Of a DNA stretch of 49,349 nucleotides, positions 1 through 46,634 are shown piece after piece. The number at the start of each line of letters is the position of its first letter. Position 1 is the stretch's first letter. The stretch spans positions 1-49,349 of IMG/VR virus record IMGVR_UViG_3300012232_000018; one strand, given 5' to 3'. Made by a program: the position numbers and the translations under genes. This DNA is from a virus (Duplodnaviria; Caudoviricetes). A model generated the notes under the pieces. That model did no database searches, was not told where the DNA came from, and worked only from the letters and a program-made list of their open reading frames with translations.

Positions 1-2013
1 ACGTACAAGCAAGACCCGAAGAAGGCCAACCCGTCCCCGTTCGTTCCTGGGAACGAAGTAGTCCTCAGTGGGCTGTATGACCCCGCGATGAACGCTCCGG
101 TGTTCTTCGAGCACGGTAGAGCAGTCAGCTCATTTCAGCTTAATGGCGCTACTTGCATCATCGGCCACAACCTCGCGTTCGATTTGCACTACCTGATGCG
201 GGACTGCCCGGACATGCAGGCGCACCTCGGTAAGCACGTCCGGATATGGGACACACAGCTTGCCGAGTTCATCCTCAGCGGGCAGACGAAGCCTTACGCC
301 AAGCTCGACGACATCTCTGTTGCGCGTGGCGGTGGGGCGAAGACGACGTTCGTGTCGGACTGCTGGGCCGCATACATGGACACGGACGAGATCGCGATCA
401 AGCACCCGGCTGAGTTGATGACGTACCTGGAAGGCGACTTAAGGAACACCTGGAAGGTCGCTGTCTCGCAGATGGAGGAGGCTCATGCGCGGAACATGAT
501 GCCGCTCATCCTCAGCCAGATGGAGGCACTGCAAGCCACGATCGACATGACCTTCAACGGCATGAAGATCGATAGCAACCGCCTTGCAGAGCTTGAGACG
601 AAGTGGGGGCTCGAGGCCGACGAGCTGCGCATGAAGCTCGAGAACCACGCCTCCGTGCTCGTCGGTTGGCCGGGCATCTTCAACCCTGGCAGCGGGCAGC
701 AGCTGGCGACCGTGCTCTACGGCGGTGAGATCGAGTACGCCGGCAAGGAACAGATCGGGGTGTACAAGGGCGGCCCGCGCAAAGGGCAGCCACGTTACCA
801 GAACGTCACGCTTAAGAAGCAGATCACCGGGTTTGGGTACAAACCGATCCGTGAGACCGAGGGCGGGCAGCGGTCGGTGGACGAGTTGACGCTACGGCAG
901 CTACTACCGCAATCACCGGTACCTATCTCCAAGGAATTCGTGGAGACGGTGCTCGAGTACCGCGCCGTGAAGAAGCAGCTGACCACGTATGCGGTGGGCC
1001 TGCGTGAGTGTACTGGCGCCGACGGCTACATCCACCACAGCATCAACCATTGTGTAGCTCGCACAGGACGGTTGACCAGCAGCAAGCCGAACCTTCAGAA
1101 CGTGACGAATGGCGACATCAAGAGCGCCTTCATCTCGCGCTTCGCGGACGGCAAGATCGTCGAAGCGGACTTCAAGCAGCTGGAGATGATCGCCCTGGCG
1201 TACCTCAGCAACGATACGCAGCTGATGGACGACATCTGCATGGGCCGTGACATGCACACGGAGCTGTACATCGACCTGTTCGGCCGGGCGCCAACGAAGG
1301 AGCAGCGCAAGGAGGTCAAGCCGATCAGCTTCGCCCTGGTGTACGGGGCAGGCGCCAACAAGATCGCTGACCAGAGTGGACTGAGCGTCGAGTTCGTGAA
1401 GAAGTTCATCAGCGTGTTCTACACAAGGTACGAGGGAGTCGCTCGCTACCACAACGAGATCATGGACGCCGTAAACAACACCAGCGTACACAAGGGCAAG
1501 AAGGACACCGACGGTATCCCTATCAAGGAGTCCGTCATCGTCAGCCCGACAGGGCGGCACTACCCGTTCGAGCAGTACACCGCGCCTGACTTCATTCTGG
1601 CGCGCGACCCGAAGGCCAAGACGTTCAGCCCGACCGAGATCAAGAACCGACCGGTTCAGGGGCTCGCTACGGCGGACATCGTGCCACTCGCAGTGGGCAA
1701 GTTGTATCGCACGATCTACGTCAGGAATCTGCACAAGGGTATCCGACTCATCAACACAGTACATGACAGTGTAATGGCGGATGCGCAGCCAGACTACGTG
1801 GCCCATCTCGCGAACGTAATGAAGGAGATACTCACCGCAACGCCCGCAACAATCGAGGAGACATGGGGCTTCAAGTTCCCGCTGCCACTCGACATCAACG
1901 TTTCATCCGGCCCCACCTGGCTCGATCAGCAGGAGATCGTGTTCCCAGGAACGTTTGCCAGCCCTGCATCCACTGACAAGGAAGAGAAATGCCTCGAGTT
2001 TCTGGAGTCGTAA
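1..2013 (+). CDS. Family A DNA polymerase with 3'-5' exonuclease domain (5'-truncated by the window edge)
   Basis: Frame is open from base 1 (TYKQDPKKANPSPF...). ExoII GHNLAFDL, RTGRLTSSKPNLQN, motif A ADFKQLE, motif B RKEVKPISFALVYG (Phe at the E. coli 762 position), motif C VHDS. Confidence 0.97.
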   Translation, partial: TYKQDPKKANPSPFVPGNEVVLSGLYDPAMNAPVFFEHGRAVSSFQLNGATCIIGHNLAFDLHYLMRDCPDMQAHLGKHVRIWDTQLAEFILSGQTKPYAKLDDISVARGGGAKTTFVSDCWAAYMDTDEIAIKHPAELMTYLEGDLRNTWKVAVSQMEEAHARNMMPLILSQMEALQATIDMTFNGMKIDSNRLAELETKWGLEADELRMKLENHASVLVGWPGIFNPGSGQQLATVLYGGEIEYAGKEQIGVYKGGPRKGQPRYQNVTLKKQITGFGYKPIRETEGGQRSVDELTLRQLLPQSPVPISKEFVETVLEYRAVKKQLTTYAVGLRECTGADGYIHHSINHCVARTGRLTSSKPNLQNVTNGDIKSAFISRFADGKIVEADFKQLEMIALAYLSNDTQLMDDICMGRDMHTELYIDLFGRAPTKEQRKEVKPISFALVYGAGANKIADQSGLSVEFVKKFISVFYTRYEGVARYHNEIMDAVNNTSVHKGKKDTDGIPIKESVIVSPTGRHYPFEQYTAPDFILARDPKAKTFSPTEIKNRPVQGLATADIVPLAVGKLYRTIYVRNLHKGIRLINTVHDSVMADAQPDYVAHLANVMKEILTATPATIEETWGFKFPLPLDINVSSGPTWLDQQEIVFPGTFASPASTDKEEKCLEFLES

Positions 2014-2477
2014 GCACCATCAACAGCAACAACGTCACCACCAAGTTCGGCGTGAAGAAGACGTACACGTTCCTGGTGGATGGCGCGGAGTACCGCACCA
2101 ACTTCAAGGACTCCGGCGTTAAGCCGGGTGACACCGTCACCTTCGACTTCTCTACCGGCAAGTACGGTAACGACGTCGACCTGGCGAGCGTGAGCGTCAC
2201 TGGTACTGCACCGATCCCCGCCTCAGCGCCCCGCCCGACCGTGGTGCAAGGCGGTGGCAATCGTGGTTCGTTCCCCGTCGGTGCGCTTGACGGCAACCGT
2301 GCCATCAACCGTCAGAACGCGCTGACCAACGCCGTGAAGTTCTCCGAGCGCAGCCCGACGTATATGGAGGTTGAGGCCGTCATCGCAATCGCTCGCAAGT
2401 TCGAGGCGTACACCTGCGGCGACGACGACATGGCAGCCGCCGCTGGACAACTGGCGAACGAGAAGGCTGCCGCGTAA
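1989..2477 (+). CDS. Putative single-stranded DNA-binding protein
   Basis: Beta-rich OB-like N-terminus (TKFGVKKTYTF), Pro/Gly linker and position directly after the polymerase. Function inferred from synteny. Confidence 0.6.
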   Translation: MPRVSGVVSTINSNNVTTKFGVKKTYTFLVDGAEYRTNFKDSGVKPGDTVTFDFSTGKYGNDVDLASVSVTGTAPIPASAPRPTVVQGGGNRGSFPVGALDGNRAINRQNALTNAVKFSERSPTYMEVEAVIAIARKFEAYTCGDDDMAAAAGQLANEKAAA

Positions 2478-2572
2478 TGGCCGCCGCCATCATCGTTGGC
2501 GGCATACTCGGTCTCCTGGTCCTTGGTGCTGTGTTCGATGCTTGGATGAAACACCATGACAAAAACGATTGA
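2477..2572 (+). CDS. Small membrane protein (31 aa)
   Basis: TAATG coupling to the upstream gene; MAAAIIVGGILGLLVLGAVFDAW is one TM helix. Below the ORF-track cutoff. Confidence 0.55.
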   Translation: MAAAIIVGGILGLLVLGAVFDAWMKHHDKND

Positions 2573-3464
2573 TACACTCGTGCCTGACATCGAGCGCATG
2601 CTCGACGGTGCGGCGACAGGCGTATCACCTGTGGCGATTTGTCCGACGGATGCCGTATCGTTCGGACAGAACATCACCAAAATGCTCGAGCGTCAGCTCA
2701 CCGGGCGGGTGAAGAAGTCCCGCACCGGGGAGAAGGTGCTGCGCATGTCCGAGTTGGGCAAGCCGTGCCACCGTCAGTTGTGGTACGAGTATCACACGCC
2801 CGAGGTAGCTGAGCCGATGCCGGGTCACACCATCGTGAAGTTCCTGTTCGGGGACATCATTGAGGAAGTGGCTCTGCTGTTGGCGAAGCTAGCCGGGCAC
2901 GAGGTCAAGCACGAGCAAGAGAAGATCGAGTTCGAGCGCAATGGTTGGACGATTCGCGGACATCAGGACGCCATCATTGATGACGCCCTGGTGGACGTGA
3001 AGTCTGCCAGCGGGTACGGCACGCAGAAGTTCAAAGACGGGCTGACCGACCAGAACGACGCCTTCGGCTACCGGGGCCAGCTGAGCAGCTACATGCTGGG
3101 CCAGCATCCGGACGTGAAGCGCATGGGGTTCCTGGTGAAGAACAAGGAGAACGGGCGCCTGCTGTGGTCCGAGACTCCGTATCAAGATCCCTTGCCGAAG
3201 ATCGACGCGCTCATCAACGACCTCGAGCAGCCCGCCCCACCCATCCGTGCATTCGCGGATGTTCCTGAGGGTAAGAGCGGCAACCGCAAGCTGGATACGG
3301 CCTGCTCTTATTGCCCATTCAAGCAAACCTGCTGGCCTGGCCTGCGCGGTTTCGCGTATGCCAAGGGGCCGGTATGGCTCACTGAAGTCAAGAAGGCGCC
3401 TGATGTTCCAGAGTTCACAGCGCAAGTGGTAGAGAGCGCGCAGGAGTTGGCTATGACTGAATGA
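2556..3464 (+). CDS. Cas4-like PD-(D/E)XK exonuclease with Fe-S cysteines
   Basis: LRMSELGKPC, GHQDA..LVDVKSAS, Q-x3-Y, C-terminal CSYCPFKQTC. Confidence 0.85.
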   Translation: MTKTIDTLVPDIERMLDGAATGVSPVAICPTDAVSFGQNITKMLERQLTGRVKKSRTGEKVLRMSELGKPCHRQLWYEYHTPEVAEPMPGHTIVKFLFGDIIEEVALLLAKLAGHEVKHEQEKIEFERNGWTIRGHQDAIIDDALVDVKSASGYGTQKFKDGLTDQNDAFGYRGQLSSYMLGQHPDVKRMGFLVKNKENGRLLWSETPYQDPLPKIDALINDLEQPAPPIRAFADVPEGKSGNRKLDTACSYCPFKQTCWPGLRGFAYAKGPVWLTEVKKAPDVPEFTAQVVESAQELAMTE

Positions 3465-5132: not shown

Positions 5133-5268
5133 TCGGACGGTCCTACGAATGTTCCTGGGAACGCTGTCCGCGTTCTTCTACCTCACCACCGTCTTCACAG
5201 GTGGGGCCGCGATCGTTACACACGCCATCGCTAACTGGCTAGACGGAGTAGCAGACACACTGGAATGA
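5110..5268 (+). CDS. Small hydrophobic hypothetical protein (52 aa)
   Basis: Fills the gap; ATGA overlap with the next gene; MKRLRQFNRTVLRMFLGTLSAFFYL... Confidence 0.5.
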   Translation: MKRLRQFNRTVLRMFLGTLSAFFYLTTVFTGGAAIVTHAIANWLDGVADTLE

Positions 5269-7279: not shown

Positions 7280-7283
7280 CGTG

Positions 7284-9638
7284 TTATTTCTGATGCCAGG
7301 GATCGATACCCAGAATCTTCTTCACGTATGCGCGTGTCTCTTCGGGCGCGTTTCTCCAGCCGTGCTCACTCAGGTTGCCCGGCCCCCAGTTGTACGCTAC
7401 CAATCCCTTCCATACGCTGTTGCCGTGCGCCTTGATTTGCTGCGCGAGGTAGCCCACGCCACCCTTCACGTTCTGGTGTACGTCGTTCACATCCGTCACG
7501 CCCATCTCTTCAGCAGTGCCCGGCATCAGCTGGGTCAAGCCGCCTGCCCCTACGGGGCTCTTGGCATCCGGCTTGAAGTTGCTCTCGGCTGCGATCATCT
7601 TCGTAGCCAGTCCCTTCGGCAAGCCTGCCTGCTGTGCCTCATGCTCAGCCAGCGCTGACACCTGCGTCTTGAACTCCGGAGTACCAGCCTGCGCCGTCAC
7701 CTTCGGTGCTACCGCTTCCATCCCACCCTTTGTGCTTGCTGCGGGTTGGTTGCCCTTCTTGGCTGCTGCCTCGATGGACGCTGGCGTGGTCGGGCCTGGC
7801 CCGGCGTGCGTGCTACCCACCACGTCAAGCGTGTGGTTCCTCCATCCCTCTGTCGTATCCTGTCCCTGCGTCTCCCCTGTGTACTGAGCAGCAGTCCGAA
7901 CCGTGGTCAAGTGGTTGTTGTAGTCCTTCACCGCTGACACCACGCTTGGATCGCGCGACGTTGTCACAATCCTCCCGTTCTGGTCCACCGTCAGTGGTTC
8001 CCGGCCTGCTTCCGCAATCGCCGTGATGCGCGCGGACGAGGCACCGAGTGCCTTCCCTGCCACATCCCGTACCTGCGCTGCCAGCGGCCCCTGCTTCGCG
8101 GCCGGTAGTTGTGCGAGCACCGTGTCGAGCGCCCCGGAGTTGACTACGGCATCCATATTGGCCTGCCCTGTGGCCCCCGATAGGGCCGCGTTGCCTGCCC
8201 AGCGTGTTACACGCTTCTCGGCGTCCTCAAGCTGCTGGTCGTTCAGCCTGCCGTTGCCACGGTAGCTCCTGAGTTGCATGTTGTCTTCGCCGATGATGAC
8301 GTTGCCCATCCCCGGGTGGAGCTTGTCCGCCGTCTTGAGGTCCGTCTCACCCTTGTAGGTCGAGAGGTTCAGGTTTGTGTATAGCTCGGGGTCTTTGTTC
8401 TTGGCGTCGATGTAGGACTTGCCCCACTGCCCGTACAGCTTCAGGAACGCCTGGTCGTTGCCATCCGGACCCTTCAGGCGCATGTAGTCGGTCGCCATCT
8501 GCGGCATCATGCCCGAGGTCTTGACGAACTCGAGGTCGGCGTTGGTGATCTTCATGTTCGACTGGAGCAGCTCGGCCTTGCCCTGCGCGTTCTTGATCGC
8601 CAGCGTGACGGCGTTCTGACCTTCAGCGGACTGAAGGTTGTTGCGCACGGTGCTCAGCGAGGTGTGCAGATCGTCCTTCAGTTTCTTCGCCGTCTCGAAC
8701 GTGATCGGGTTCACCGGGTCACGCATCCAAGCGTCGATCTGCTTCATGCCCTCGATCTCCTTCTTCTGGAGCGTGTCGCCCAGCTCGCGAGACCAGCGCT
8801 GCGATACCACCTGGCTGCTGAAGTCGGCGTCCTTGTTGGCAGCCTGGAACTTCTCCCAATCGTTGAGAACTCCCGTCATCGTCGTGGCCTGCATCATGCC
8901 GTACTGCTTGGAGGCCAGCCGCTCGTTGTCCTCATCCTGCATGACGCGGGTGCTGCGCTGCGCCTGGAGCGTGGCCGCGCTGGCGATGGCTACCTGGTGC
9001 TGCTTGTAGGCCCCGCGCATCTGGTCCGTGATCTGGTCGCGGGTGTTGACCCCGTTCTGCGCCATGATCTCCTGGTCGGTCTTCATGGAGAACTCCCAAT
9101 CGGCTTTTGCCTGCTCGTTACGATGAGCGGCTGCGCTGAACATATGCTCGATGCCCGACATGCCAACCTTCTCCGCTGCGTTGCGGCGGAAGTCGCTGGC
9201 CCATCCCGGCATCTTGTCGCTGTACTGCTTGACGATCGAGTCCAGGCGGAGCTGGAAGGAGTTCTTGTCGATGACGCCCTGCTGGTACGCGGCGTACAAC
9301 CGGTCCGTGTCCGACTTGAATTGGCCGGCCGGGTGCGACGGGTCGCCCGAGTTGATGGCACCCTGCGCAGCGCTAGCGTTCCCGGGAACGGCCAGCAGCT
9401 TACCAGTCGCGTCCTGAATGGCTTGGTTGATCTTCGTATCTTCACCGGCCAACAGCGAACCCTTCCATACATCAAGGCCCTGCTTCCCAGCGTAGGTTAT
9501 GGCACCGCCCAGGGCGGCGCCCAGTTTGTTACCGGCGGATTCGGTTTCACCTTCCGCTAGGCGGAGGTCTCTGATAGCACTACCACTGTCGGCAGCCTGC
9601 GGGGCGGCACCTAGATCGACTGCGAACTTATCTGCCAT
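7284..9638 (-). CDS. Internal virion (ejection) protein with C-terminal lytic transglycosylase (SLT) domain
   Basis: IAAESNF..AKSPVGAGGLTQLMPGTA...AYNWGPG...ETRAYV. Confidence 0.9.
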   Translation of the reverse strand: MADKFAVDLGAAPQAADSGSAIRDLRLAEGETESAGNKLGAALGGAITYAGKQGLDVWKGSLLAGEDTKINQAIQDATGKLLAVPGNASAAQGAINSGDPSHPAGQFKSDTDRLYAAYQQGVIDKNSFQLRLDSIVKQYSDKMPGWASDFRRNAAEKVGMSGIEHMFSAAAHRNEQAKADWEFSMKTDQEIMAQNGVNTRDQITDQMRGAYKQHQVAIASAATLQAQRSTRVMQDEDNERLASKQYGMMQATTMTGVLNDWEKFQAANKDADFSSQVVSQRWSRELGDTLQKKEIEGMKQIDAWMRDPVNPITFETAKKLKDDLHTSLSTVRNNLQSAEGQNAVTLAIKNAQGKAELLQSNMKITNADLEFVKTSGMMPQMATDYMRLKGPDGNDQAFLKLYGQWGKSYIDAKNKDPELYTNLNLSTYKGETDLKTADKLHPGMGNVIIGEDNMQLRSYRGNGRLNDQQLEDAEKRVTRWAGNAALSGATGQANMDAVVNSGALDTVLAQLPAAKQGPLAAQVRDVAGKALGASSARITAIAEAGREPLTVDQNGRIVTTSRDPSVVSAVKDYNNHLTTVRTAAQYTGETQGQDTTEGWRNHTLDVVGSTHAGPGPTTPASIEAAAKKGNQPAASTKGGMEAVAPKVTAQAGTPEFKTQVSALAEHEAQQAGLPKGLATKMIAAESNFKPDAKSPVGAGGLTQLMPGTAEEMGVTDVNDVHQNVKGGVGYLAQQIKAHGNSVWKGLVAYNWGPGNLSEHGWRNAPEETRAYVKKILGIDPWHQK

Positions 9639-27533: not shown

Positions 27534-29065
27534 TATCGGTATGCAACTCCGCCGAAGCGGCCGGAGTAGATGATGTTGTCTTCTTGCTTGAATGCGTTGA
27601 TCTTGCCTGGTGCTTTGGCGATCTCAACTACGGCGGCCAATGCGTCCTTCAAGTCGTCGTGTTCCGGCTTGGCCATCACCAACTCTTCTTCTAGCGCCGG
27701 TATGAACCCGCCCCGGTAGTGCCAGATCGTTTGGTTCGCGTAGCGCGGCTCGAGCGTGGAGTTGACGCGGTCCTCTTTGCTGCGGTTGGTCGGCGGACGG
27801 TACTCGTCGATGGTGAACTGTATCTCTTCACGTCTCATGTGCTCCTTAAATTGCTCTACCACTAGCGCTTGCATCAGCGTGCACTCAGCGCGTAGCTTCT
27901 TGAAGCGCCACTTGCGGAACAGCCGCAGCGTCTGGTCGTACATGACGCTAATGCGATTGGTCTTGAAGCGTTCGATGTCGAGGATGTAGATGAAGCCGCC
28001 CTGGTCCACGCCTACCACTACGATCGCGGTATAGTCGGCCGTCTTCGAGATGGAGTACGCGAAGTCGACTGATGCGTAGACGTTGAGCGCCTTGTCCCCG
28101 AGATACCAATGTCCGGAGAGCTGTTTGAGCTGCTCGCGGTCATAATACTGAAAGCGTGTGGCGTCGAGCTGCGCGGTCTCAGCGACGTTGGGGTCGTTGT
28201 AATACTGCGCGTAGAACTGCCGGATATCGAGGTACTTGGCCTTCTTACGGGCTAGTTCTCGCTCATCAAAGCCGAAGTGCTTGCCGTCGTCTCGGTATGC
28301 CTTTGGCCATAAGAAGGCGCCGCCGACTTCAACCTTGCGCTCGAAGACCTCATATACCTGCTTCGAGACCCAATCACCGGTAGCGCTATCCTCGTACTCC
28401 TCCGTCATCTCCATCATGTCGCGATAGAGATCGGCCGGATGGTAACGGGTGCCTACGCACCACTCCTTCGCGCCCGTCGTTTCGATAGAACTGAGCTGTG
28501 AATAGAACGCACGGACGTCGACACGACCTTGGTCAGAATCGTTCCCAGGAACGACGACGTCGTCGAGTACAGCTACGTTGCAGTGAAGGCCCGTAGTGTT
28601 TGCAGTGATGCCCACCGCCTTGCACGTCGGGTCGCGTACACCCTCTTCCTTGCGCTTCGGATGGTCAACACTGAACTCTTCCGAGGTCCAACGTGCCCGC
28701 TTGTTCTCAGACACATCGACCATCTCCGGCCAGTAGTATCTGTACGCATCGGAGGTAAGGATGTTCTTGATGAACGTCAGCTGCTTCTCGGCCAGGTCGG
28801 CCGTTGCACTGACGTACAGGATCATAATGTCCGGGTGCTTGGTGATCCACCAGGCGACGCGGTAAGCGATGAGCGCCGACTTCTGGTGATCCCGGGGCAG
28901 CAGGACGAGCTGGTTGTCGAGGGCACCTGCCCGCTGCCACCAGCGGCACAGTTCCTCATGCACGATGCCGAGCATCCGCTTGGGAGCGACCAAGCGAATG
29001 AACGTCAGGAGGTCGGCCTCTGCTGCTTCGCGAATCTCAGCCCGTTTGTCGACGGGCTTTGCCAC
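27533..29065 (-). CDS. terL: Terminase large subunit
   Basis: Walker A-like LPRDHQKS, Walker B AVLDD, GTRY, RNase H-like VDFA..DYTA...HDDLKDA. Confidence 0.95.
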   Translation of the reverse strand: MAKPVDKRAEIREAAEADLLTFIRLVAPKRMLGIVHEELCRWWQRAGALDNQLVLLPRDHQKSALIAYRVAWWITKHPDIMILYVSATADLAEKQLTFIKNILTSDAYRYYWPEMVDVSENKRARWTSEEFSVDHPKRKEEGVRDPTCKAVGITANTTGLHCNVAVLDDVVVPGNDSDQGRVDVRAFYSQLSSIETTGAKEWCVGTRYHPADLYRDMMEMTEEYEDSATGDWVSKQVYEVFERKVEVGGAFLWPKAYRDDGKHFGFDERELARKKAKYLDIRQFYAQYYNDPNVAETAQLDATRFQYYDREQLKQLSGHWYLGDKALNVYASVDFAYSISKTADYTAIVVVGVDQGGFIYILDIERFKTNRISVMYDQTLRLFRKWRFKKLRAECTLMQALVVEQFKEHMRREEIQFTIDEYRPPTNRSKEDRVNSTLEPRYANQTIWHYRGGFIPALEEELVMAKPEHDDLKDALAAVVEIAKAPGKINAFKQEDNIIYSGRFGGVAYR

Positions 29066-33779: not shown

Positions 33780-36299
33780 TTAGGTTAGTGCTGTATTAAG
33801 GCCAAGAGCGACTACAATACCTAAGACAGCTTCCTGTGCTAGTTCGTCAGTGTATTGTGTTATGTCACCGACATAAAGGACATTACCGTCGGAGACCGCA
33901 GTGTCGAGTTGCGCCTTGGTGAACGAGCCGAGCATAGTTGCATTGGAACCGGCAGACGCGGTGATATGACCAGTAAGCGCGGCACGCTGTAACAGAGGCG
34001 TGGCGTCGATATAGGTCAGTGATGCGTCGACCATTGCACCGACGGCGTCCTGAGCCTGCTCATCTGTGTAGCTGGCTGCGGGGTCATCCCACACAAATGG
34101 CGCGCCTGCACCGACTGATGTCAGTACCTGGCCTGCGGTACCAGCATCCCCATTGATGAGTAGGTCGCCTTCCTTTTTCAGCTGGAGCGTCTGCTCCGAT
34201 CCGAACGGGCCGGTGTAGACGAACAGATTGTCCTTCGACCGAAGCTCGTTGAAGCCCGAGTCCGTGACGGCCACTAGGCTGGCCGCGTTGGCGAAGATGT
34301 ACGACAGGCCGCTAACCTCGGAGACGTATAGCCCGTAACCTGAGCCCGATATGACCTCCACATTCCCGGAGGCATTGTGGATCGACAAACCCGAGTTATT
34401 GCTGATGCCGCCCAGGAAGTGTGCTAGGCCACTATCATCAATGTCCCAGGATGCCTTGCCCCCGTTGACCTTCGCGCTGACGTTGTGGGTAGTCGAGTTG
34501 ACCACCACTGCATCGTTGGCCGCAGCTCCCAGGTTGAGGATCGCCCCATCCCAGGTTGCGTTCGCCAGACCGCCGAATGAACCGGCGTTGTTGTACTGTA
34601 ACTGGGTATCAGCCCCACCAGGTGGTGTACTACTAGATGCTGCGTCCTCCCAAGTCGGCGCAAAGCCTGCTCCATTGGAGGTGAGTACCTGTGTCGCAGT
34701 GCCCGGATCGGTGTTGATCTGCAACTCAGATGTGCTCTGAAGCTGGAGTATCCCGTCACTTTGCGCGATGAAAGTCGAACTGTTCGGACCGCCATCGGAT
34801 GCCCCGAGGCGGGCCGTGTAGGCCACGCCATCTAGATCGAAGAACGCCTGCCCACCGAGCCCGTCGTTTGCATAGCCCGCAATATCTACAAGTGAGCCGA
34901 GGGTGACGTAATCTGAGTCAACCGTGAGGCCCGACTGTGCAGTAGTGCCACCCAAGAGCTGCACCTTGCCGGTAGTATCATTGGCCAGCAGATCAACGTT
35001 CGTACCGTTGAAGTGCAGGGTGTTATTGACATTGTCCCAGGTTAGGTTCGCGGTGCCGCCCAAGACACCGGCATCATTGAATTGAAGCTGGGTGTCACTA
35101 CCGCCTGGTGTGGCCAAACTCGTGGCGGCGTCCTCCCAGGTAGGCGCAGCGGCAGGACCGTTGGAGGTCAGTACCTGCGTCGCCGTCCCGGCATCGTTGT
35201 CGAGGAACAGTGGCAGGTCGCTGGTGTTGCCGAAGGTCAGATACAGGCCGGTGTCGTCGGCCGCTGCCGCGACTAGGTCGCTGGTCGAGGAGATTGCTGC
35301 GGGGTCATCCCATACAGGCGGTGAACCTGCACCCTGCGATACCAGGGCCTTGCCTGCTGTTCCGGCATTGCCGTTGATGAACAGGTCGGCGTCGAGGCTC
35401 AGAGCGATAGTCGAGGACTGGAGGCCCATCGACCCATCATTGTTTAGATTGATCGTCTCGCCACTGGTCAGGATCTGGATGCTGCCAGTAGGACCGTCGA
35501 TCGCAACCGACGCCGTGTCACCGTCACTCATCACCACGGTGCCGGTGGCCGTGTCGCCTTCAAACATGGCGGAGTCGGTGTCGCGTGTGAAGATCCACTG
35601 CTCACCGTTCCACACCAAGCGTGGACTGCCACCAAAGCTGCCCGAGTCGTTGAACTGGATCTCGGTGTCGTCGCCACCCGGCGTGCCGCTGCCACCGGTG
35701 CCGGTCTGCTCAACCCAGCCGAGCTTGTGGTCGACCATTCCTGCGTCTTCCACGATCCCGAGCACGTAGCCTTCCTGCCCGCGCTCCGAGCCAGGCGGAA
35801 CCCAACTAGCGCCCGAACTCGAGTCCTTGCCGTCCTTGCCCTTTTCTCCGGGCTTCCCGTCTTTGCCGTCCAAGCCGTCCCTGCCCGGAAGCCCCGGCGC
35901 TCCATCGCGCCCGTCCTTCCCGGCACGGCCGTCCAGGCCGTCTTTGCCGGGAGTGCCCCGCTCACCGATCAAGCCCCGGTCGCCTTGGTCGCCTTTGGCG
36001 CCGGGCGAACCGTCGTTTCCATCCCGGCCATCGCGGCCGGCATTCCCATCGTTCCCGGGAACGCCATCTCTGCCGGGATCGCCGCGCATCTTCGAGATCA
36101 GCGCCTTGATCGAGTCCTGGTCGCCGGTCGCCTTCTCCAAGTCGACCAGCCGCACGGGATCGTTCCCGCCTACAGGAGCAGGAATGCCGGTGAGGCGGTT
36201 GCCGTGCATGTCGATGGTGACGCCCCGCTTGACTACGAGGGTGCGGTCGCCAGATAGCAGCAGGAAGATCTTATCGAGGAGTGGATCGAGGAAAGACAA
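33780..36299 (-). CDS. Tail fibre with collagen-like G-X-Y segment and repeated modules (start uncertain)
   Basis: G-X-Y run at ~35824-36083; repeated GTA.QVLTS.G..P.W.D and PGG.DTQ.QFN..G.FGG modules. Confidence 0.85.
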   Translation of the reverse strand: MSFLDPLLDKIFLLLSGDRTLVVKRGVTIDMHGNRLTGIPAPVGGNDPVRLVDLEKATGDQDSIKALISKMRGDPGRDGVPGNDGNAGRDGRDGNDGSPGAKGDQGDRGLIGERGTPGKDGLDGRAGKDGRDGAPGLPGRDGLDGKDGKPGEKGKDGKDSSSGASWVPPGSERGQEGYVLGIVEDAGMVDHKLGWVEQTGTGGSGTPGGDDTEIQFNDSGSFGGSPRLVWNGEQWIFTRDTDSAMFEGDTATGTVVMSDGDTASVAIDGPTGSIQILTSGETINLNNDGSMGLQSSTIALSLDADLFINGNAGTAGKALVSQGAGSPPVWDDPAAISSTSDLVAAAADDTGLYLTFGNTSDLPLFLDNDAGTATQVLTSNGPAAAPTWEDAATSLATPGGSDTQLQFNDAGVLGGTANLTWDNVNNTLHFNGTNVDLLANDTTGKVQLLGGTTAQSGLTVDSDYVTLGSLVDIAGYANDGLGGQAFFDLDGVAYTARLGASDGGPNSSTFIAQSDGILQLQSTSELQINTDPGTATQVLTSNGAGFAPTWEDAASSSTPPGGADTQLQYNNAGSFGGLANATWDGAILNLGAAANDAVVVNSTTHNVSAKVNGGKASWDIDDSGLAHFLGGISNNSGLSIHNASGNVEVISGSGYGLYVSEVSGLSYIFANAASLVAVTDSGFNELRSKDNLFVYTGPFGSEQTLQLKKEGDLLINGDAGTAGQVLTSVGAGAPFVWDDPAASYTDEQAQDAVGAMVDASLTYIDATPLLQRAALTGHITASAGSNATMLGSFTKAQLDTAVSDGNVLYVGDITQYTDELAQEAVLGIVVALGLNTALT

Positions 36300-36438: not shown

Positions 36439-36505
36439 CACCCCCTCGAAGCCGCGCCCGCCGCCGGTTGGCGGCCGACCCCAGCTGCGTCAGAACGACG
36501 GTGAA

Positions 36506-36546
36506 AGGGGATATGGGGATAGGTAGTAGTATTAATAGTAGTAGTA
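36506..36546. repeat. AGGGGATATGGGGA box plus (TAG)n tract, copy 1
   Basis: The 14-mer at 36506-36519 recurs inverted at 46657-46670; both copies adjoin TAG repeats. Confidence 0.7.
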
Positions 36547-37044
36547 CTTATATGCAGGTACCCGCCGCTAGGCGGGGGCTAGTCTTGCCCCGGCCTTAAA
36601 AAACCTGAATATACAAAAAGTTGTGAGGGACTTTAGGGCTGCATATGCACCCTAGCATCGACCCCCTCCCCCCTACATGCCCTCGACGCATGCCGCAGCG
36701 CCGCATAAAACGCGAGAGTGTATGCGCGTGAGGGTGTGATGTGCGCCGCACGCCCCGCATCATGCCCCCGAGCTCGTATGTGCATGAGGAAGTGAGGACT
36801 TACTGACCTCGTTGTGCACTGCACCGTTAGTGAGTGGTCACTAGCGTTCCCAGGAACGGTGTCAGCTGGCTCCCCGCCAAATGAGCGCGCACCTCCCCAA
36901 GACTTCCCCTTGCCTTGCCTAGCTGGTGGGCAAGTCCTACATCTAGTCCCGCGCGCATCTAAGTATTTAAAAACACTACCTTTTAAACCAGTAGTTCTAC
37001 TGAAGTAGAGAAGTGCTAGCAATACTACTTCTACTTAGAAAGTC

Positions 37045-40176: not shown

Positions 40177-40334
40177 ACTACCTTCGCTTAATTGCATCAC
40201 TCGCACCAATTATCATGCTCACCTTGTCCCTCATCGCGTCGTTTACGGGTGACCTACAGCTCGCAATCTACCTTGCTGTGGTGTGGGTAGGTATGGAAGC
40301 ACGGAGCACAGTTGAAGTGAGGATACCAAGGTGA
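40173..40334 (+). CDS. Small two-TM membrane protein
   Basis: AGGA RBS, hydrophobic, coupled to neighbours. Confidence 0.55.
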   Translation: MNYLRLIASLAPIIMLTLSLIASFTGDLQLAIYLAVVWVGMEARSTVEVRIPR

Positions 40335-40735
40335 ACTACCTCAAGGAAGCGCTCGAACACTACGCAGTAAGCGAGCGTGCTGATGCTACTGCGTGGGATC
40401 GCATCGCTAATTGGGGCAATCAGTGTGCTGTCGTTGGCGGGCACATGGACGTGATTGAGAAGGAGATCGCGCATTGGGAAAGCGAGGTGAAGAAGGACTT
40501 CGGCCTCACTGCATTGCCTAATGCATGGCGTAGTGCCAAGAGCACCGTACTCAGTGCGGTCAACCTCGGCGTGCCGCTGATGGACAACGGACAAGTGCGT
40601 GCCAAAGTAGCGGTGAGTAAGGACATCGCCAAGGTAAGGGGCACCAGCCCTAGCCCTGATCCCGTACCTGCGACATCCGCACCGGTATTACAGGTAGTGC
40701 GATGCCCCAACTGTGGGCGTGACTTCTTGCCGTGA
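40331..40735 (+). CDS. Hypothetical protein
   Basis: GAGGA RBS plus GTG; LPNAWRSAKS; C-terminal CPNCG. Confidence 0.7.
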   Translation: MNYLKEALEHYAVSERADATAWDRIANWGNQCAVVGGHMDVIEKEIAHWESEVKKDFGLTALPNAWRSAKSTVLSAVNLGVPLMDNGQVRAKVAVSKDIAKVRGTSPSPDPVPATSAPVLQVVRCPNCGRDFLP

Positions 40736-41058: not shown

Positions 41059-41087
41059 AGGGAAGTACCCTCTGGCCCGCGCGTGCC

Positions 41088-41133
41088 AGAACTAAGTCAA
41101 CACGCGCCGCAGTACATTTTCCTAGCGAATTTT
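41088..41133 (+). repeat. Bipartite upstream element, copy 2
   Basis: AGAACTAAGTCAACAC-N13-TTTTCCTAGCGAATTTT upstream of the vWA gene RBS. Confidence 0.85.
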
Positions 41134-41148
41134 CGAGGTCACACAACC

Positions 41149-42864
41149 ATGCTCAATCCGTATGAGCTTGAGAGGTACGCACGTCTTTGTGCGAAACGCG
41201 CCAAGCTCCGCGTGAAGTTCGAGACCAACGCAACACCGAGTACAGATGGCGAGACGATCTACTTGCCGACGCCTAACTTCCTCACCATGACCGAGGATGA
41301 GGCGATCGACGTCAAGCATTTCGTTGCGCACGAGACGAGCCACGTCTTGCACACCGACTTCGCTCCCGCCAAGGAGGGCAAGATGGTGTTCGGGTCTGAC
41401 TCGTTGCTCGGCCTCATCATGAATCTGATCGAGGATCATCGCATCGACTACATCAACGGGCGTGAGTTTGCCGGCGACCTTGAGAACGGCGTGTCCTATG
41501 CGACGCGCTGGATACCGACGTTCGCCAAGCGCTTCCATAAGCTCGGCAACAGGGCGGAGACCGCTGCAACGCTGTTCTGCTGGGACTTGATGGTGCGCGA
41601 CTATCCGTGCGCTGGTGATGCTGAGGCAACACTTGAGCCGCTGTCCGACATGGCCAAGCTCATCAAGCTGCGGACGTACACGCCGCAGCTGCGCAGGCTG
41701 CGCGAGATACTGCCCAAGGAGCAAGGTACGCAGGCGTCGTGGGATCTGGCCGTTGAGATATTCGAGAAGGTGTACGGCGGTGATGCGCCCCAGGAGATGA
41801 AGCAGTTTCAGCCGAAGCCGCAGCCCGGTGAAGGCCAGCCCGGTGAGGAGGGCGAAGGCGACAAGGGTGAAGGTGACGGTAAAGGTGAAGGCGAGGAGGT
41901 CAAGGGTGAGGGCATCGCCACGGTGAAGTGGGAAGACATCGCTGGCAACCCTATGAGCGTCAACCCCAACACCACGCGCCGTGGTCTGCATATCGACTAC
42001 ACGAACTACAAGGGTAGTACGCCGTATCAGTCGGCGCAGCTGGACGATCACCTTGTCGTGGACTTCATCGGCGGTGACGTACCGAGCCGCTTCAACGGGC
42101 GCTGCGCTATCGAACTACCTGATGCGTCCACCAGTGACGCGTTTGCACAGCAGGTACGGCTGAACCTACAGATCAGGGCGCGCAGCAAGTACGAATACGG
42201 CCGCAAGACCGGCAAGCTCAACCCGCGTGCGTTGTATCGCATGGGCGTCGACTCACCTGCCCTACAAGAGCGCATCTTCAAGAAGAAGTACACCAGCGAC
42301 GTGCTCGATGCGGCTGTGTCGATGCTGGTTGATGGCTCTGGCTCGATGGGTGGCTACAAGTACGATCACGCTGCCAAGTCGGCGCTGCTGCTCAACGAGG
42401 CGATCGGTAACGTACTGCGTGTGCCGCTGGAGATCATCAGCTTCACAGAAGACACAGGCCTGACTGGATACAGGCCGATCGAGTTCCTGCATCGCAAGTT
42501 CGACAACAAGGTACTGCCCGAGCATCAGCTGTTCGACAGCCTTGAGCGTGCCGGTGCGTACAAGTACAACAACTGCGACGGCGACGCTGTGTTGTGGACG
42601 TATGACCGTCTCGCCAAACAACGGGCGAAGCGCAAGCTGCTCATCGTGCTCAGTGATGGTAGCCCCGCCTCACGGCGACCGGGAGATCACATAGCCTTCT
42701 GCAAGAAGATCATCGAACACGTCGAGCAGTCCCCGGTGGACATCGTTGGCATCGGCATCATGGATGACAACGTGAAGCGGCTGTACAAGAAGCACTACGT
42801 CATACATAGCGCAGAGCAACTCGAGACTGCGCTGCTTTCTCTCATTGATCGTTACCTGGTGTAA
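41149..42864 (+). CDS. CobT-like protein: N-terminal HExxH domain, acidic Gly/Glu linker, C-terminal vWA (MIDAS) domain
   Basis: AHETSH...NLIED.RID; DGSGSM; LSDGSP; GIGI. GAGG RBS before ATG 41149. Confidence 0.9.
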   Translation: MLNPYELERYARLCAKRAKLRVKFETNATPSTDGETIYLPTPNFLTMTEDEAIDVKHFVAHETSHVLHTDFAPAKEGKMVFGSDSLLGLIMNLIEDHRIDYINGREFAGDLENGVSYATRWIPTFAKRFHKLGNRAETAATLFCWDLMVRDYPCAGDAEATLEPLSDMAKLIKLRTYTPQLRRLREILPKEQGTQASWDLAVEIFEKVYGGDAPQEMKQFQPKPQPGEGQPGEEGEGDKGEGDGKGEGEEVKGEGIATVKWEDIAGNPMSVNPNTTRRGLHIDYTNYKGSTPYQSAQLDDHLVVDFIGGDVPSRFNGRCAIELPDASTSDAFAQQVRLNLQIRARSKYEYGRKTGKLNPRALYRMGVDSPALQERIFKKKYTSDVLDAAVSMLVDGSGSMGGYKYDHAAKSALLLNEAIGNVLRVPLEIISFTEDTGLTGYRPIEFLHRKFDNKVLPEHQLFDSLERAGAYKYNNCDGDAVLWTYDRLAKQRAKRKLLIVLSDGSPASRRPGDHIAFCKKIIEHVEQSPVDIVGIGIMDDNVKRLYKKHYVIHSAEQLETALLSLIDRYLV

Positions 42865-42872
42865 GGAGCAAC

Positions 42873-44006
42873 ATGAGCACGACCATCATATCACCCGGCG
42901 TGTTAAGCAGTGGTGCTGCTAGCGCTGGCGGCAGCAAGCTGGACAGCAAGGTAGCCGAAGCGCTGCTCGAACAGATGCGCAACCGCACACCAGAGCAGGA
43001 GGTCGCAGCCGCACCCGCGGAAGTAGAGCCGGAGCAGGGTGAGCTGCCGGTAACAGAGCCCATCGTCGTAGGCGAGGGGCAGCGCCTGCTCAGTGACATG
43101 GTCAAGAAGAAAGTGCCGTTCGACTTCGCCGTCACCATCTTCAAGCCCGAGCAATTACACGAGAAGGTGCGTGCCTTGGTGCCGACTATCGACCCGCTGT
43201 ACAGGCCAGACATTGATGCGCTGACCAAGGTGCTCTACGCCCTGGAGAACAACGAGCCTGTGGTTGTCACTGGCCCCACTGGTTGCGGCAAGTCGCAGCT
43301 GATCCGCCATGCCTGTGCGTTGACGATCCGCCCCGAGATTCGCATCAACATGACCGGTGATGCGGAGTCAAGCGTTATCTTCGGCACGCTTGTTGCGAGG
43401 AGTGGGTCCACCGCATGGGAAGATGGCCCGGCCACTGAAGCCTGGCGCTACGGTGCGGTGCTCAACGTCGATGAGTACGACGTCACCCCGCCTGAAGTTG
43501 CGATGGGCTTCCAGTGGATGCTCGAGAATGATGGGCGCCTGTTCCTGAAGGAGATGCCCGGTAGCGCGCTGGACAAGATCATCATGCCTCACCCGAATGC
43601 GAGGTTGGTGATGTGCGGTAACACGGTAGGCCAAGGCGATGAGACGGGACACTACGCTGGTGTCTCGCCGCAGAACACAGCGTTCGTCGATCGGTTCCGG
43701 GTCAGTGTGCGGATGAACTACCTACCAGCCGTCGATGAGAAGGCTATCATCAAGGCAGCGGTGCCTAAGCTGCCGGCCAAGACCATCACCAGTATGGTGC
43801 AGTTCGCCGGGCTGTGCCGTCAGGCGTACCAGCAGCGCACGCTGAACCTGACGATGTCGCCCAGGACGCTCATCAACTGGGCTGGCAAGATCAACGCATT
43901 CGGCCTGCGCCCTGCCCTTGACACGGCGTACCTGGACAAGCTAACCGATTCGCAGCGCAAGATCGCGCTCGAGTCCTTCCAGAAGGTGTTCGGCACACAA
44001 TCATGA
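42873..44006 (+). CDS. MoxR/CobS-like AAA+ ATPase
   Basis: GPTGCGKS, VDEYD, GNT.G.GD, QNTAFVDRF, SPR. Confidence 0.92.
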   Translation: MSTTIISPGVLSSGAASAGGSKLDSKVAEALLEQMRNRTPEQEVAAAPAEVEPEQGELPVTEPIVVGEGQRLLSDMVKKKVPFDFAVTIFKPEQLHEKVRALVPTIDPLYRPDIDALTKVLYALENNEPVVVTGPTGCGKSQLIRHACALTIRPEIRINMTGDAESSVIFGTLVARSGSTAWEDGPATEAWRYGAVLNVDEYDVTPPEVAMGFQWMLENDGRLFLKEMPGSALDKIIMPHPNARLVMCGNTVGQGDETGHYAGVSPQNTAFVDRFRVSVRMNYLPAVDEKAIIKAAVPKLPAKTITSMVQFAGLCRQAYQQRTLNLTMSPRTLINWAGKINAFGLRPALDTAYLDKLTDSQRKIALESFQKVFGTQS

Positions 44007-44353
44007 GCAAGCGCGAGCCATTGTTCTCGCTCACTGCCAAGGATTTCGTGTGGTCATATACACGCGGCACTGGTAGCGGGGGGCAGAAGAGGAACAAGAC
44101 GAGCAGCGCAGTACACTGCTCGCATCCGCAATCAGGATCGCATGGCTATAGCGAGGCGACACGCTCTCAACTTGACAATAAGATCGCCGCCTTCATGAAG
44201 TGCGTGAACACACCGAAGTTCAAGGCGTGGCTTGAGCTGGAGATGATGCGCCGCCAGGGTGTACTGGCTCAAGTTGACGCTGCTGTGGAGCGCGAGATGA
44301 AGAAGGTCAGGGTCGAAGGCAAAGACGCAGAGGGGCGCTGGACAGAGCTATGA
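44003..44353 (+). CDS. GGQ peptidyl-tRNA hydrolase / class I release-factor domain protein
   Basis: RGTGSGGQKRNKTSSAV...H..SG....RSQ..NK..A. Confidence 0.88.
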   Translation: MSKREPLFSLTAKDFVWSYTRGTGSGGQKRNKTSSAVHCSHPQSGSHGYSEATRSQLDNKIAAFMKCVNTPKFKAWLELEMMRRQGVLAQVDAAVEREMKKVRVEGKDAEGRWTEL

Positions 44354-45375
44354 CAGGACGTCGTAAAAAGCATCACGACCTAGGGATGGTGAGACTGTAC
44401 GTCTACAAGGGCAAGCACGCCACGACGTACTTCACCATCCTCAAGGACGGGTCGTACCACAACCTCGGCCACGACAAGCACAAGGCGAAGCAGCAGCTGC
44501 TCGATCTCACTGGACCTACTGCGTTCCCAGGAACGATTGAGGCGCTTATCGAGGGCCGCCTGACCCGGCTCAAGGACTTGCTGGACCAAGGCATGCGAGC
44601 ACCACGCTCCTGGATAGATGACCAGATCTACGCAAAAAATTTGCAGGGAATTTTCGGCCATCTATTGGCAGTCGACTTGACTACAGCAGACTGCTACCGC
44701 TACCTCACCAGCGGAAGGGGCAGGAAGGCCCCAATCAGGGCCAACAAGGAGATACGTTGGCTCAGCGGGGCGTACAGGTGGGGGATGAATGCCGGGCTGA
44801 TCGCTACAAATCCCGTCAGTTCGACGCAGTTCAATGCAGAAGTGCCACGCGATAGGCACATCACCGATGAGGAGCTTCGATCCTTCTGCGAGTACTGCGC
44901 CGGGGATGGCACGCAGGCCGGGCCGAGGGTGGCGATCGCATTCGATCTCGCCTACCTCACAGCCAAGGCGGAGGCACAGATCCTGCGACTACATCGTAGC
45001 CAGGTGACAGCCGAGGGCGTGTACTTCAAGAAGAGGAAGGGTGGTGCGAACACACTGGTTGAGTGGACTCCCGCACTACAGCACGCCATCAATGCAGCCA
45101 AGGCGCTGAGCCCTGGCATGTTCTTAGTTAGCACCACACTTGGCACGCCGTACACGCTAGGCGGATTTAAGGCGCTGTGGCAGCGGCGCATGGTGGCATG
45201 GAGTACAGCTACCGGGCTGCCACGCTTTACATTCCATGACCTTCGAGCCAAGGCCATCACCACGATGAAGAGTGAGGGCCGTGTAGCAAGCGAGGTCAGT
45301 GGCCATCGAGAAGAGAAGACCGTGGCGCGCGTTTATGACAGGCGCAGGGTACGTAAGGGACCAGCAGTTGAATAA
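44350..45375 (+). CDS. int: Tyrosine recombinase/integrase (first catalytic Arg apparently absent)
   Basis: N-terminal arm-binding-like region, core domain, FHDLRAKA, SGH, RVY. Box I reads AYLTAKAEAQIL. Confidence 0.9.
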   Translation: MTGRRKKHHDLGMVRLYVYKGKHATTYFTILKDGSYHNLGHDKHKAKQQLLDLTGPTAFPGTIEALIEGRLTRLKDLLDQGMRAPRSWIDDQIYAKNLQGIFGHLLAVDLTTADCYRYLTSGRGRKAPIRANKEIRWLSGAYRWGMNAGLIATNPVSSTQFNAEVPRDRHITDEELRSFCEYCAGDGTQAGPRVAIAFDLAYLTAKAEAQILRLHRSQVTAEGVYFKKRKGGANTLVEWTPALQHAINAAKALSPGMFLVSTTLGTPYTLGGFKALWQRRMVAWSTATGLPRFTFHDLRAKAITTMKSEGRVASEVSGHREEKTVARVYDRRRVRKGPAVE

Positions 45376-45396: not shown

Positions 45397-45465
45397 AATA
45401 ATAGGGAAGGAGAGGAATTTTTCGGGCTGCGGTACATCCGCCCGGTGTTCAACCGGAGATGTACT

Positions 45466-45765: not shown

Positions 45766-45801
45766 TAAACGCCTCGCATCTTAGTAACAACCACACGTAA
45801 G

Positions 45802-45850
45802 TGGCGGAGTGGACGGGACTCGAACCCGCGACCCCCGGCGTGACAGGCCG
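45802..45850 (-). other. attP core: 3' 49 nt of a tRNA-Asp(GTC)
   Basis: Minus strand CGGCCTGTCACGCCGGGGGTCGCGGGTTCGAGTCCCGTCCACTCCGCCA = anticodon arm, T arm, acceptor 3' strand and CCA. The 5' half is absent; ~430 bp downstream of int. Confidence 0.88.
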
Positions 45851-45961
45851 AGCCTCTCCTCCAGCGATTCATGCTCTTAGGTGCGAAAGTTCCTAAGAAC
45901 ACCTGACGTACAGATGGGCCTGCCCCGCAGGCGACCCCCTTCCATCTTAGGAGAATTGTAC

Positions 45962-46609
45962 GTGAGAAAACTTGCAATCGCAGTAGCACTGCTGATCGCC
46001 ATTCCGGCGTTCGCCAATGGTGTCGGCAACGACAACCCGGCTAGCACAGGTACGACCACTAACACCAATACCGCCACTGGCGGAGCTGGTGGGAATGGTG
46101 GAGTTGCATACGGTAGCACGAACAACAACTCGCTGGTCGGTGGCAACTTCGGAATAAGCGCGACCAATGGGCCGGTCTCGGCCACGGGTGGCAAGGCTGA
46201 GCAAGGACAAGTACAGGGACAGAAGCAAGGCCAGGCGCAGAAGGCTACCGCCAAGCAGTCCCAGTCGGCTGACAACAACGGTAACACCCAAGTCGTGAAC
46301 GAAGCGAAGAACGCTGCGGCCTCGGCGCCGTCGGCGATCGTCGCCGTGGCCTCGAGCTGCGGTGGATCAGCAGCTGCCGGAGGACAGGGCTTCTCTGGCG
46401 GTGGCGTGTTCGGTTTCGCCTTCGAGTTCTACGACTGCAAGGTGATCCGTGAGGCGGCGTTCCTCATCACGTTGGGGCAGGTGGAGGCTGGTCTCCAGCA
46501 CGTCTGCAACATCGAGCGGATGAAGGACTCACTCGAACTCAGCACGACGTTCCGTTGCAAGACCAAGCCGAGCAAGGCTGCTTTCAGCAGCAAGGCCGGC
46601 CGCTCCTAA
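45962..46609 (+). CDS. Exported Gly/Asn/Gln-rich protein
   Basis: AGGAG plus GTG; signal peptide MRKLAIAVALLIAIPAFA; four Cys in the C-terminal domain. Confidence 0.75.
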   Translation: MRKLAIAVALLIAIPAFANGVGNDNPASTGTTTNTNTATGGAGGNGGVAYGSTNNNSLVGGNFGISATNGPVSATGGKAEQGQVQGQKQGQAQKATAKQSQSADNNGNTQVVNEAKNAAASAPSAIVAVASSCGGSAAAGGQGFSGGGVFGFAFEFYDCKVIREAAFLITLGQVEAGLQHVCNIERMKDSLELSTTFRCKTKPSKAAFSSKAGRS

Positions 46610-46634
46610 ACGTTCCTGGGAACAGGGGTACTGC

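Follow-up and report, generated by a model that had tools for sequence, protein, structure and literature searches.

Palindrome copies in the window

The question raised by this locus is which protein, if any, reads a 14-bp palindrome that recurs along a phage genome, and to what end. The window analysed was the stretch from position 1 to 49,349 of IMGVR_UViG_3300012232_000018 (49,349 nt). Ten exact copies of YGTTCCYRGGAACR were found in it and none in any of 100 dinucleotide shuffles, by which both the ten positions and the rarity by chance given in an earlier note on this DNA were confirmed, together with the 18-bp arm extensions at 40-57 and 13948-13965. One further copy, in the clade-typical form GTTCCTAAGAAC, was located at 45889, which brings the number to eleven. 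The copies, given as 14-mers without strand, were placed as follows:

42..55, with 18-bp arms, ahead of the first ATG (88) of the DNA polymerase gene where its frame is open, read as VPGN
1940..1953, within the gene of DNA polymerase A, read as FPGT
5150..5163, inside an unverified ORF of 56 aa, 5' of the gene for dGTP/dATP diphosphohydrolase
9377..9390, within the internal virion gene that bears SLT, read as VPGN
13950..13963, with 18-bp arms, within the gene of the 2014-aa internal virion protein, read as VPGN
28540..28553, within the gene of the terminase large subunit, read as VPGN
36050..36063, within the gene of the collagen-like tail fibre, read as VPGN
36845..36858, in the gap where the two arms diverge, some 580 bp ahead of the first early ORF
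44522..44535, inside int, read as FPGT
45888..45901, variant (eleventh) palindrome copy directly past attP, 38 bp away
46611..46624, palindrome copy, intergenic, 61 bp upstream of the ORF at 46686

The number of copies was ten with spacer 2 and zero with spacer 4. With two mismatches allowed there were still just 11 sites (1.89 expected), and a halo of weak sites is therefore absent in the window. The gaps of 2-4.5 kb were as described in the earlier note, but the spacing was no more even than random (CV 0.88 vs 0.87) and even spacing within the window is not supported.

Selection at synonymous positions

Six of the copies are in genes that could be identified, namely pol, terminase, fibre, integrase and a pair of internal virion genes, and with the open pol frame and the unverified 56-aa ORF the intragenic copies come to 7-8, in line with the eight previously counted; those at 36846 and 46612 are intergenic. 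In the 49 curated CDS of the window, all four VPGN and both FPGT peptides are encoded by the motif. Synonymous resampling of the window genes gave a mean of 0.05 and a maximum of 1 in 400 against the six observed, and codon-preserving nulls for five relatives gave 0.42-1.12 expected against 9-17 motifs observed. The palindrome is thus a mark at the DNA level, selected at synonymous positions, as had been proposed.

Phage identity and distribution of the motif

Judged from gene content and best matches, the window phage is Zobellviridae-like: it has convergent arms, a PolA without an RNA polymerase, and a terminase and capsid of Zobellviridae type, and the closest matches of its proteins are in ICP2, MEP401 and cobaviruses. 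The motif is a trait of one clade of close relatives, which carry up to 28 copies each in a spelling specific to the lineage. In the eight relatives at least 90% complete, the core motif was counted 21-39 times per record and the reversed control 2-7 times. The positions of the sites in shared genes turn over among relatives while density is maintained, and many clade sites join unlike arms, e.g. GTTCC with AGAAC. Exact-motif matches in viral contigs (115 loci, none with two or more copies) were taken as chance matches, and four GGTCC-N4-GGACC copies in ICP2 were dismissed, all being inside its tail fibre gene.

Across 16 genomes, 76 sites were found in 103.0 kb of early-replication marker genes, 18 in 53.7 kb of internal virion genes and 19 in 89.6 kb of core virion genes, a gradient that is confounded by the stronger conservation of core virion proteins (60-71% vs 27-48% identity) and by the near-identity of several genomes. 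The early arm of the relative G001 is tiled approximately every 1 kb (20 sites; gap CV 0.33 vs 0.93 for random placement, P<0.0001, with the arm boundary picked post hoc). Over whole records, evenness reached P<0.01 in 3 of the 16 genomes, and the other 13, the window among them, were not significantly even.

Binders named previously

Two features of the window bear on the binders and hosts that were tested:

44350..45375, + strand, tyrosine integrase, a possible binder that was tested and discounted for the clade
45802..45850, - strand, attP core, the 3' half of tRNA-Asp, used to choose candidate hosts

The earlier note had proposed a dimeric protein, either a host factor or an unannotated phage protein, with the HTH protein and the integrase as named candidates, acting in prophage silencing, segregation or chromosome organisation. 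The dyad does suit a dimer and an unannotated phage protein is likely, but neither named candidate held. The integrase family (phrog_1) was present in one of five relatives tested and in none of the four that are complete (terminal repeats) and motif-rich; integrase arm-type sites were also rejected, as the sites span the genome and the complete relatives are without integrase. The HTH gene (45445) was missing from all four relatives searched, namely three of the four complete integrase-less relatives and another relative. Prophage silencing is not supported either. Among the 71 window proteins there was no cI-type repressor beyond this weak HTH. ParB_N (PF02195) was detected in 0 of 5 genomes by a search that matches 11 of 14 controls, which bears out the statement that no ParB is recognisable and sets the clade apart from ParB, Noc and KorB systems.

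Candidate hosts were chosen by attP match from 201 genomes of one phylum. In the six with an exact attP (3.2-5.3 Mb), 1, 0, 5, 0, 0 and 1 motif copies were counted (controls 0-2), so that the mapping suggested earlier gave no enrichment; in G118, four of the five copies are inside unrelated ORFs. The letters of the motif fit TGTTC-N4-GAACA, of the LexA-box type, but host LexA is not supported as the binder: all five candidate hosts with an exact attP tRNA-Asp have CTG-N10-CAG before lexA, and GTTM-N4-KAAC was absent upstream of lexA in the same five. LexA boxes are described, in the available part of the source, as promoter sites of host SOS genes (PMC8565304).

Candidate reader

The search for a phage protein led to the following gene and its usual neighbours:

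40331..40735, + strand, candidate reader, a 134-aa early protein of an unnamed family, putatively binding the palindrome
41083..44006, + strand, CobT-like VWA and CobS-like MoxR AAA+ genes, the usual downstream neighbours of the candidate gene

The association of this pair with the candidate gene is one of neighbourhood alone; ICP2 has a CobT-like/CobS-like pair and is without the motif. The candidate protein is predicted to consist of a helix with W/Y-R-x-A-K, a beta-hairpin and a basic helix, and its family (581 clusters) has conserved exposed basic residues. The gene is present in 8 of 8 relatives at least 90% complete and in 0 of 11 named Zobellviridae.

A homologue, P0055, was modelled as a homodimer with a score of 0.74 (best control 0.00; 20 of 30 solved homodimers reach the mark used, as does 1 of 23 single chains), with at least 98% of contacts agreeing between runs and pLDDT of at least 88. 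Its conserved R78, K81, G99 and K104 are outside the interface residues listed. The window protein has a CxxC tail in place of the C-terminal helical hairpin of its relatives and is without the C-terminal half of the predicted dimer interface.

Searches of PHROGs, Pfam, PDB sequences, Foldseek PDB, VIA wide and Atlas for a known family or fold gave nothing above noise, which proves neither a new fold nor an absence of DNA binding. The fold searches with two models returned generic helical matches alone (best Z 6.6 and 6.2) and no resemblance to known DNA-binding folds, and no match to ParB or Noc was obtained by sequence or fold. An Atlas match to a Streptomyces phage repressor family (0.78) was within chance. 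Six uncharacterised phage proteins in BFVD match at E<=0.001, and tblastn against cultured phages gave zero matches.

Association of the gene with the sites

All 14 loci fetched by the gene hold two or more sites, and 31 further gene loci (225 kb) hold 142 sites against 1 control, both sets overlapping records already counted. Six of the 31 are without a standard site, including L308, L291 (10.9 kb) and L309 (5.7 kb), and G009 (85% complete) has 25 core matches with the candidate gene not found. Since gene and motif are both confined to one clade, their co-occurrence may represent a single event.

In the GTTAC/GTTAT lineage, all nine genes have an internal site at +246 to +252, which encodes NN in place of the xG usual in the family, and a further site shortly 3'; 26 sites are within 120 bp of the gene (4.0 expected locally). 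In the GTTCC/GTTCT lineages, 10 sites were near 17 genes (8.9 expected), and self-bracketing is accordingly not supported for the lineage group of the window, whose own gene has zero bracketing sites (the nearest are 3.5 and 3.8 kb off) and whose early genes from 37.4 to 44.5 kb have zero sites.

In L308, the helix and the half-site are retained and the spacer is 3 bp longer; this form occurs at 12 sites in 17 kb (Markov mean 0.005), two of which bracket the gene. Vibrio phage 1.015.O has a weak homologue with a different helix sequence (HMM E 3e-4, hhalign probability 27%) and another palindrome in 15 copies, 10 of them between early genes and two bracketing the homologue gene.

Proposed mechanism and alternatives

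The reading that we tentatively prefer, at somewhat short of even confidence and on the strength of sequence comparison and modelling, is that the palindrome binds the predicted-dimeric early protein of the 40331-40735 family, which would serve as an operator repressor and as an intragenic roadblock damping early-arm transcription. Each subunit would read one 7-bp half-site by the W/Y-R-x-A-K helix. The protein would be produced early and then accumulate, limiting its own gene wherever sites bracket that gene and slowing host RNA polymerase on the early arm and also where the convergent late arm reaches its distal end, with the core virion genes nearly free of sites. Consensus promoter scans gave chance-level matches, none overlapping a site. 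A wider reading is possible but doubtful, in which a lytic lineage tiles its early-replication arm about every kb with the codon-embedded palindrome and an undescribed DNA-binding family (the 581 clusters) reads it, specificity shifting by helix swap and half-site spacing; the result would be a self-encoded genome-organising or self-marking lattice, perhaps cleared by the adjoining MoxR AAA+/VWA pair.

The same protein may instead be structural, its dimer compacting, bridging or shielding replicating genomes at tiled sites with secondary effects on transcription, much as MatP and Noc act on chromosomes. The regular early arm of G001 (boundary chosen post hoc), the three significantly even records, the turnover of positions at constant density and the location of most sites deep within genes are consistent with this role, to which we give a minority chance, as the 13 records that are not significantly even include the window, the core virion genes are nearly bare and two-thirds of the Vibrio phage sites are between early genes. 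A host protein, either regulatory or nucleoid-associated, that has few sites in the chromosome and whose sites the phage gathered is improbable: the half-site resembles those of parS and Noc (PMC7383237, available part) and the LexA box quoted in the earlier note, that of Verrucomicrobia, and spellings could track host lineages, but the chromosomal counts in the phylum searched, the G118 copies in unrelated ORFs and the lexA promoters are against it, and the 3-bp spacer change of L308 fits a fast-evolving phage protein. Another clade-restricted phage protein, e.g. a Cas4-like nuclease limited by the site or a small ORF product, with the 40331 gene as a strongly regulated target, is also rather unlikely. 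The gene for the Cas4-like nuclease occurs in the window and in G001-G005 and is absent from ICP2, MEP401 and the Manatee phage, and bracketing would equally mark a target gene; however, a nuclease leaves unexplained why sites fall on codons conserved in the 40331-family gene and why helix and palindrome changed in step in the Vibrio phage, and no other small family, virion-block genes aside, is common to all six genomes and absent from the three outgroups.

Lysogeny, with stoperator-like repressor sites or integrase arm sites, is very improbable as the general function, given the four complete motif-rich relatives without phrog_1 and the absence of the HTH gene from the four relatives searched. 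The window and G001 do have an integrase and tRNA-Asp attP, with one site inside int and one 38 bp from attP, and a secondary use in these two temperate members may exist. A function that needs no protein reader, in which the sites would form hairpins or serve as signals for nicking or processing at the DNA or RNA level, is scarcely probable: perfect dyad symmetry and the two 18-bp copies suit it, but the many sites with unlike arms would not fold and yet fit the two-half-site consensus, and the L308 shift of 3 bp is one helical third-turn with half-sites retained. A DNA-entry ratchet, for which the expectation comes from T7-type entry order, was set aside because the genes presumed to enter last carry the fewest sites.

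Comparison with known systems

A T7-like phage that encodes no RNA polymerase depends on the host enzyme for its early-to-late switch. We know of no established account of this switch in Zobellviridae, and nothing on it was found in the literature searched. Nor was an earlier mention of the palindrome system found in the literature searched (main texts, mostly non-subscription).

Dispersed palindromic sites, some intragenic, are used for silencing or organisation by KorB-OB of plasmid RK2, by the phiC31 repressor (conserved inverted repeats) and by MatP-matS, whose proteins differ from the candidate reader. Unlike landmarks of the matS, SlmA-site and HIP1 type, the motif is not enriched in candidate host chromosomes. 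ParB-parS and Noc-NBS are 14-16-bp palindromes read by a dimer, and a 10-bp core of the NBS consensus recurs in the CG-centred window copies, which differ from it in the outer bases, as far as the available part of the source describes it (PMC7383237). The likeness to parS stands as claimed, with a close half-site and a different spacing.

A further parallel, invoked earlier, is that of the stoperators. Cluster A mycobacteriophages (L5, TipsytheTRex) have more than 20 repressor sites genome-wide, proposed to block initiation and elongation, and in the accessible portion of that source the stoperators are 13-bp, asymmetric, oriented and monomer-bound, are situated in promoters and in short gaps between genes, and have their role in lysogeny (PMC9283540). 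The present sites are likewise many and dispersed, but they are palindromic, mostly intragenic and present in integrase-less genomes, and the candidate reader has no HTH match.

If correct, dispersed-site control in mostly non-integrating phages, exerted by a reader without a known fold, would take stoperator and KorB logic outside the settings of lysogeny and plasmids. Nature supplies a series of specificities for comparison (two spellings of the half-site, a spacer longer by 3 bp, and a distant helix with a different palindrome), and with a Vibrio breoganii phage in culture the system is testable.

Motif counts and selection in the window

The palindrome of 14 bp, with GTTCC-type half-sites and, in its standard form, a 2-bp spacer, was scanned for as the pattern YGTTCCYRGGAACR. 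All ten copies reported in the earlier note were recovered at their positions, and none was given by any of 100 dinucleotide shuffles. When gapped palindromes with arms of 5 bp and spacers of 0-12 bp were all ranked by copy number, the motif came first, and the next unrelated word reached three copies. One further copy, at 45888, was obtained when two mismatches were permitted (1.89 expected). No even spacing of the window sites beyond random was detected.

Within the 49 curated CDS of the window, six copies were located, as against a mean of 0.05 and a maximum of 1 in 400 trials of synonymous-codon resampling, and all four VPGN and both FPGT peptides were written with the motif. The constraint acts on DNA, as had been proposed.

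Distribution of the motif across the clade

The motif is a trait of the phage clade. A relaxed pattern was matched one or more times in 38 of the best 80 of 598 terminase loci. The whole records of the related phages G001-G005 contained 28, 19, 11, 5 and 24 copies of GTTMYYRRKAAC, respectively (reversed control, 0-1), and five additional whole records contained 8, 10, 4, 1 and 0 copies of the 14-mer, respectively. In-gene copies exceeded the synonymous null in all five relatives tested (9-17 vs 0.42-1.12); for the outgroup phages, ICP2 had no excess (0 vs 0.63) and MEP401 had one copy vs 0.04. In the eight records with a completeness of 90% or more, the 10-bp core was counted 21-39 times (controls 2-7), compared with 1-14 times in 11 named Zobellviridae (controls 0-8); of the latter, those with the two highest counts are AT-rich and contain 0 and 1 strict 12-mers. 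The spelling of the motif is specific to the lineage, and turnover was also observed, with site positions inside shared genes changing from lineage to lineage.

Spelling of the half-site in the window and related phage records
GTTCC: window, G001
GTTCT/GTTCC: G002, G003, G005, G229
GTTAC/GTTAT: G004, G006-G008 and kin
Mixed: G232-G234

Across 16 genomes, of which several are closely related, sites were densest in early-replication marker genes (0.74 per kb), sparser in internal virion genes (0.34) and sparsest in core virion genes (0.21), a gradient that is confounded by the higher conservation of virion proteins. In the early arm of G001, 20 sites were placed about 1 kb apart (CV 0.33 vs 0.93; boundary set afterwards), and even spacing at P<0.01 was found in only 3 of 16 whole records. 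On the related contig L201 (1979-16202), another palindrome, TAATGTACATTA, occurred nine times in 21.5 kb, eight copies being intergenic, and resembles an operator or promoter element.

Comparison with known systems

The clade-wide site system is real and apparently undescribed before; a literature search on the motif spellings and Zobellviridae palindromes, limited to main texts, returned nothing relevant. KorB-OB is a system of dispersed sites; the motif sites are likewise dispersed, but no ParB domain was found in the five genomes searched. Stoperators (PMC9283540) are also dispersed; unlike them, the motif sites are symmetric and most tested carriers have no integrase. On these defining features, the system was assigned to neither.

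Candidate reader of the palindrome

An early gene at 40331-40735 (+ strand), coding for 134 aa, was singled out by all-against-all comparison of six motif genomes with three outgroups. Of 46 records, 19 carried a member of its family, among them all 8 that were near-complete; none of the 11 named phages did, and completeness was 33-85% for the 16 clade records that lacked it. The family comprised 581 clusters at E<=0.001 and had no Pfam, PHROG or PDB match; K70 and K92 are invariant in it, and E50, R67, A76 and G87 nearly so. Confident models (pLDDT 87.8 and 93.7) predicted three helices, a W/Y-R-x-A-K helix, a hairpin and a basic helix, and only generic helical matches were returned by fold searches. 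A C-terminal helical hairpin was predicted in most members and not in the window protein; at 40690-40735, a CxxC tail replaces it, as in the close homologue P0002.

A homodimer was predicted for the homologue P0055, with a score of 0.74 (best control 0.00), contact agreement of at least 98% and pLDDT of at least 88; of the solved homodimers, 20 of 30 reached the mark, as did 1 of 23 single chains. The predicted interfaces lay in residues 1-80 and 120-170; none of the conserved basic residues is listed as part of them. Two paralogues of the gene were each carried by G001, G002, G005, G230 and G231, those of G001 and G002 being of two distinct subtypes.

Co-occurrence of gene and motif was observed: at least two sites were present in 14 of 14 loci retrieved via the gene, and 31 further such loci held 142 sites vs 1 control, six being site-free; both sets overlap records counted before. 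In the GTTAC lineage, a site lay at +246 to +252 in nine of nine family genes, where it encodes NN in place of the xG found in most of the family, with another site downstream and mostly one upstream too. Sites within 120 bp of the gene numbered 26 vs 4.0 expected locally in this single lineage, 10 vs 8.9 over 17 genes of other lineages, and none in the window. The window appears to be a reduced case, having 11 strict sites, site-free first early genes and a truncated candidate reader.

The related locus L308 had no standard-form sites and 12 with a spacer 3 bp longer in 17 kb (Markov mean 0.005, maximum 1 in 200 runs; pattern drawn from L308 itself), helix and half-site being retained; two of these sites flank its family gene. 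In L289 (9233-19445), GTTATAAC occurred four times, twice upstream of the family gene, besides three standard sites.

Vibrio phage 1.015.O was examined because of a fold match, A0A2I7QQ18, which is possibly the product of its gene 66. Gene 66, also present in five sister phages, showed a weak match to the family (HMM E 3e-4, hhalign probability 27%) and differs in helix sequence. ATACA-N0/1-TGTAT occurred 15 times in this phage, ten times intergenically and five times in CDS (0.43 expected), and two copies flank gene 66.

Binding and function

The product of 40331-40735 is a plausible but unproven reader. Its dimer would bind the two 7-bp half-sites; made early, it would limit its own gene wherever sites bracket that gene, and may serve as operator repressor and as roadblock along the early arm, sparing core virion genes. 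Promoter scans gave no support for site-promoter overlap. The main rival is that the same phage protein would serve to organise DNA.

The integrase and the HTH gene (45445), first named as binders, fail on absence from motif-carrying relatives: the integrase family phrog_1 was found in G001 yet in none of four complete terminal-repeat records, and the HTH gene in none of four relatives. ParB_N was found in none of five genomes. A host factor, also proposed, fared no better, with 0-5 motif copies in each of six candidate host genomes with exact attP. Host LexA was rejected, CTG-N10-CAG boxes preceding lexA in five of five such candidate hosts.

Features of the phage

The window, a whole IMG/VR record, represents a podovirus whose arms are convergent; it encodes PolA and an integrase, has CobT/CobS-like genes and lacks an RNA polymerase. 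Its closest named kin are Zobellviridae (terminase identity 50-55%). The window ends (49349) inside a helicase and starts (1) inside a polymerase frame without terminal overlap; thus a short piece of sequence is absent. As attP core, the phage has the 3' half of tRNA-Asp; an exact match to it was present in 9 of the 201 Pseudomonadota genomes searched, one of which is titled Sulfuritalea. G001 likewise encodes an integrase and carries a tRNA-Asp attP (C1, near 8950-9000) that differs by one base from that of the window. An RF-1-domain (peptide release factor-like) gene at 44003-44353, between cobS and the integrase, was not detected in the relatives compared. The phrog_8094 tail appendage family was found in two adjoining ORFs (17094-19483; 695 and 100 aa), and relatives likewise have a small ORF of this kind downstream.

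Several 6-bp palindromes were strongly avoided in the window (AAGCTT 0 vs 11.5, GGGCCC 0 vs 10.8, GGATCC 0 vs 8.5, CCGCGG 1 vs 16.4, TGATCA 1 vs 12.8), and TCCGGA was doubled (21 vs 10.7). TAGTAG-rich stretches at 36500-36555 and 46625-46670, the second starting directly after the 46611 site with a possible hairpin, share an inverted GGGGATATGGGGA element and are possibly origin or packaging signals.
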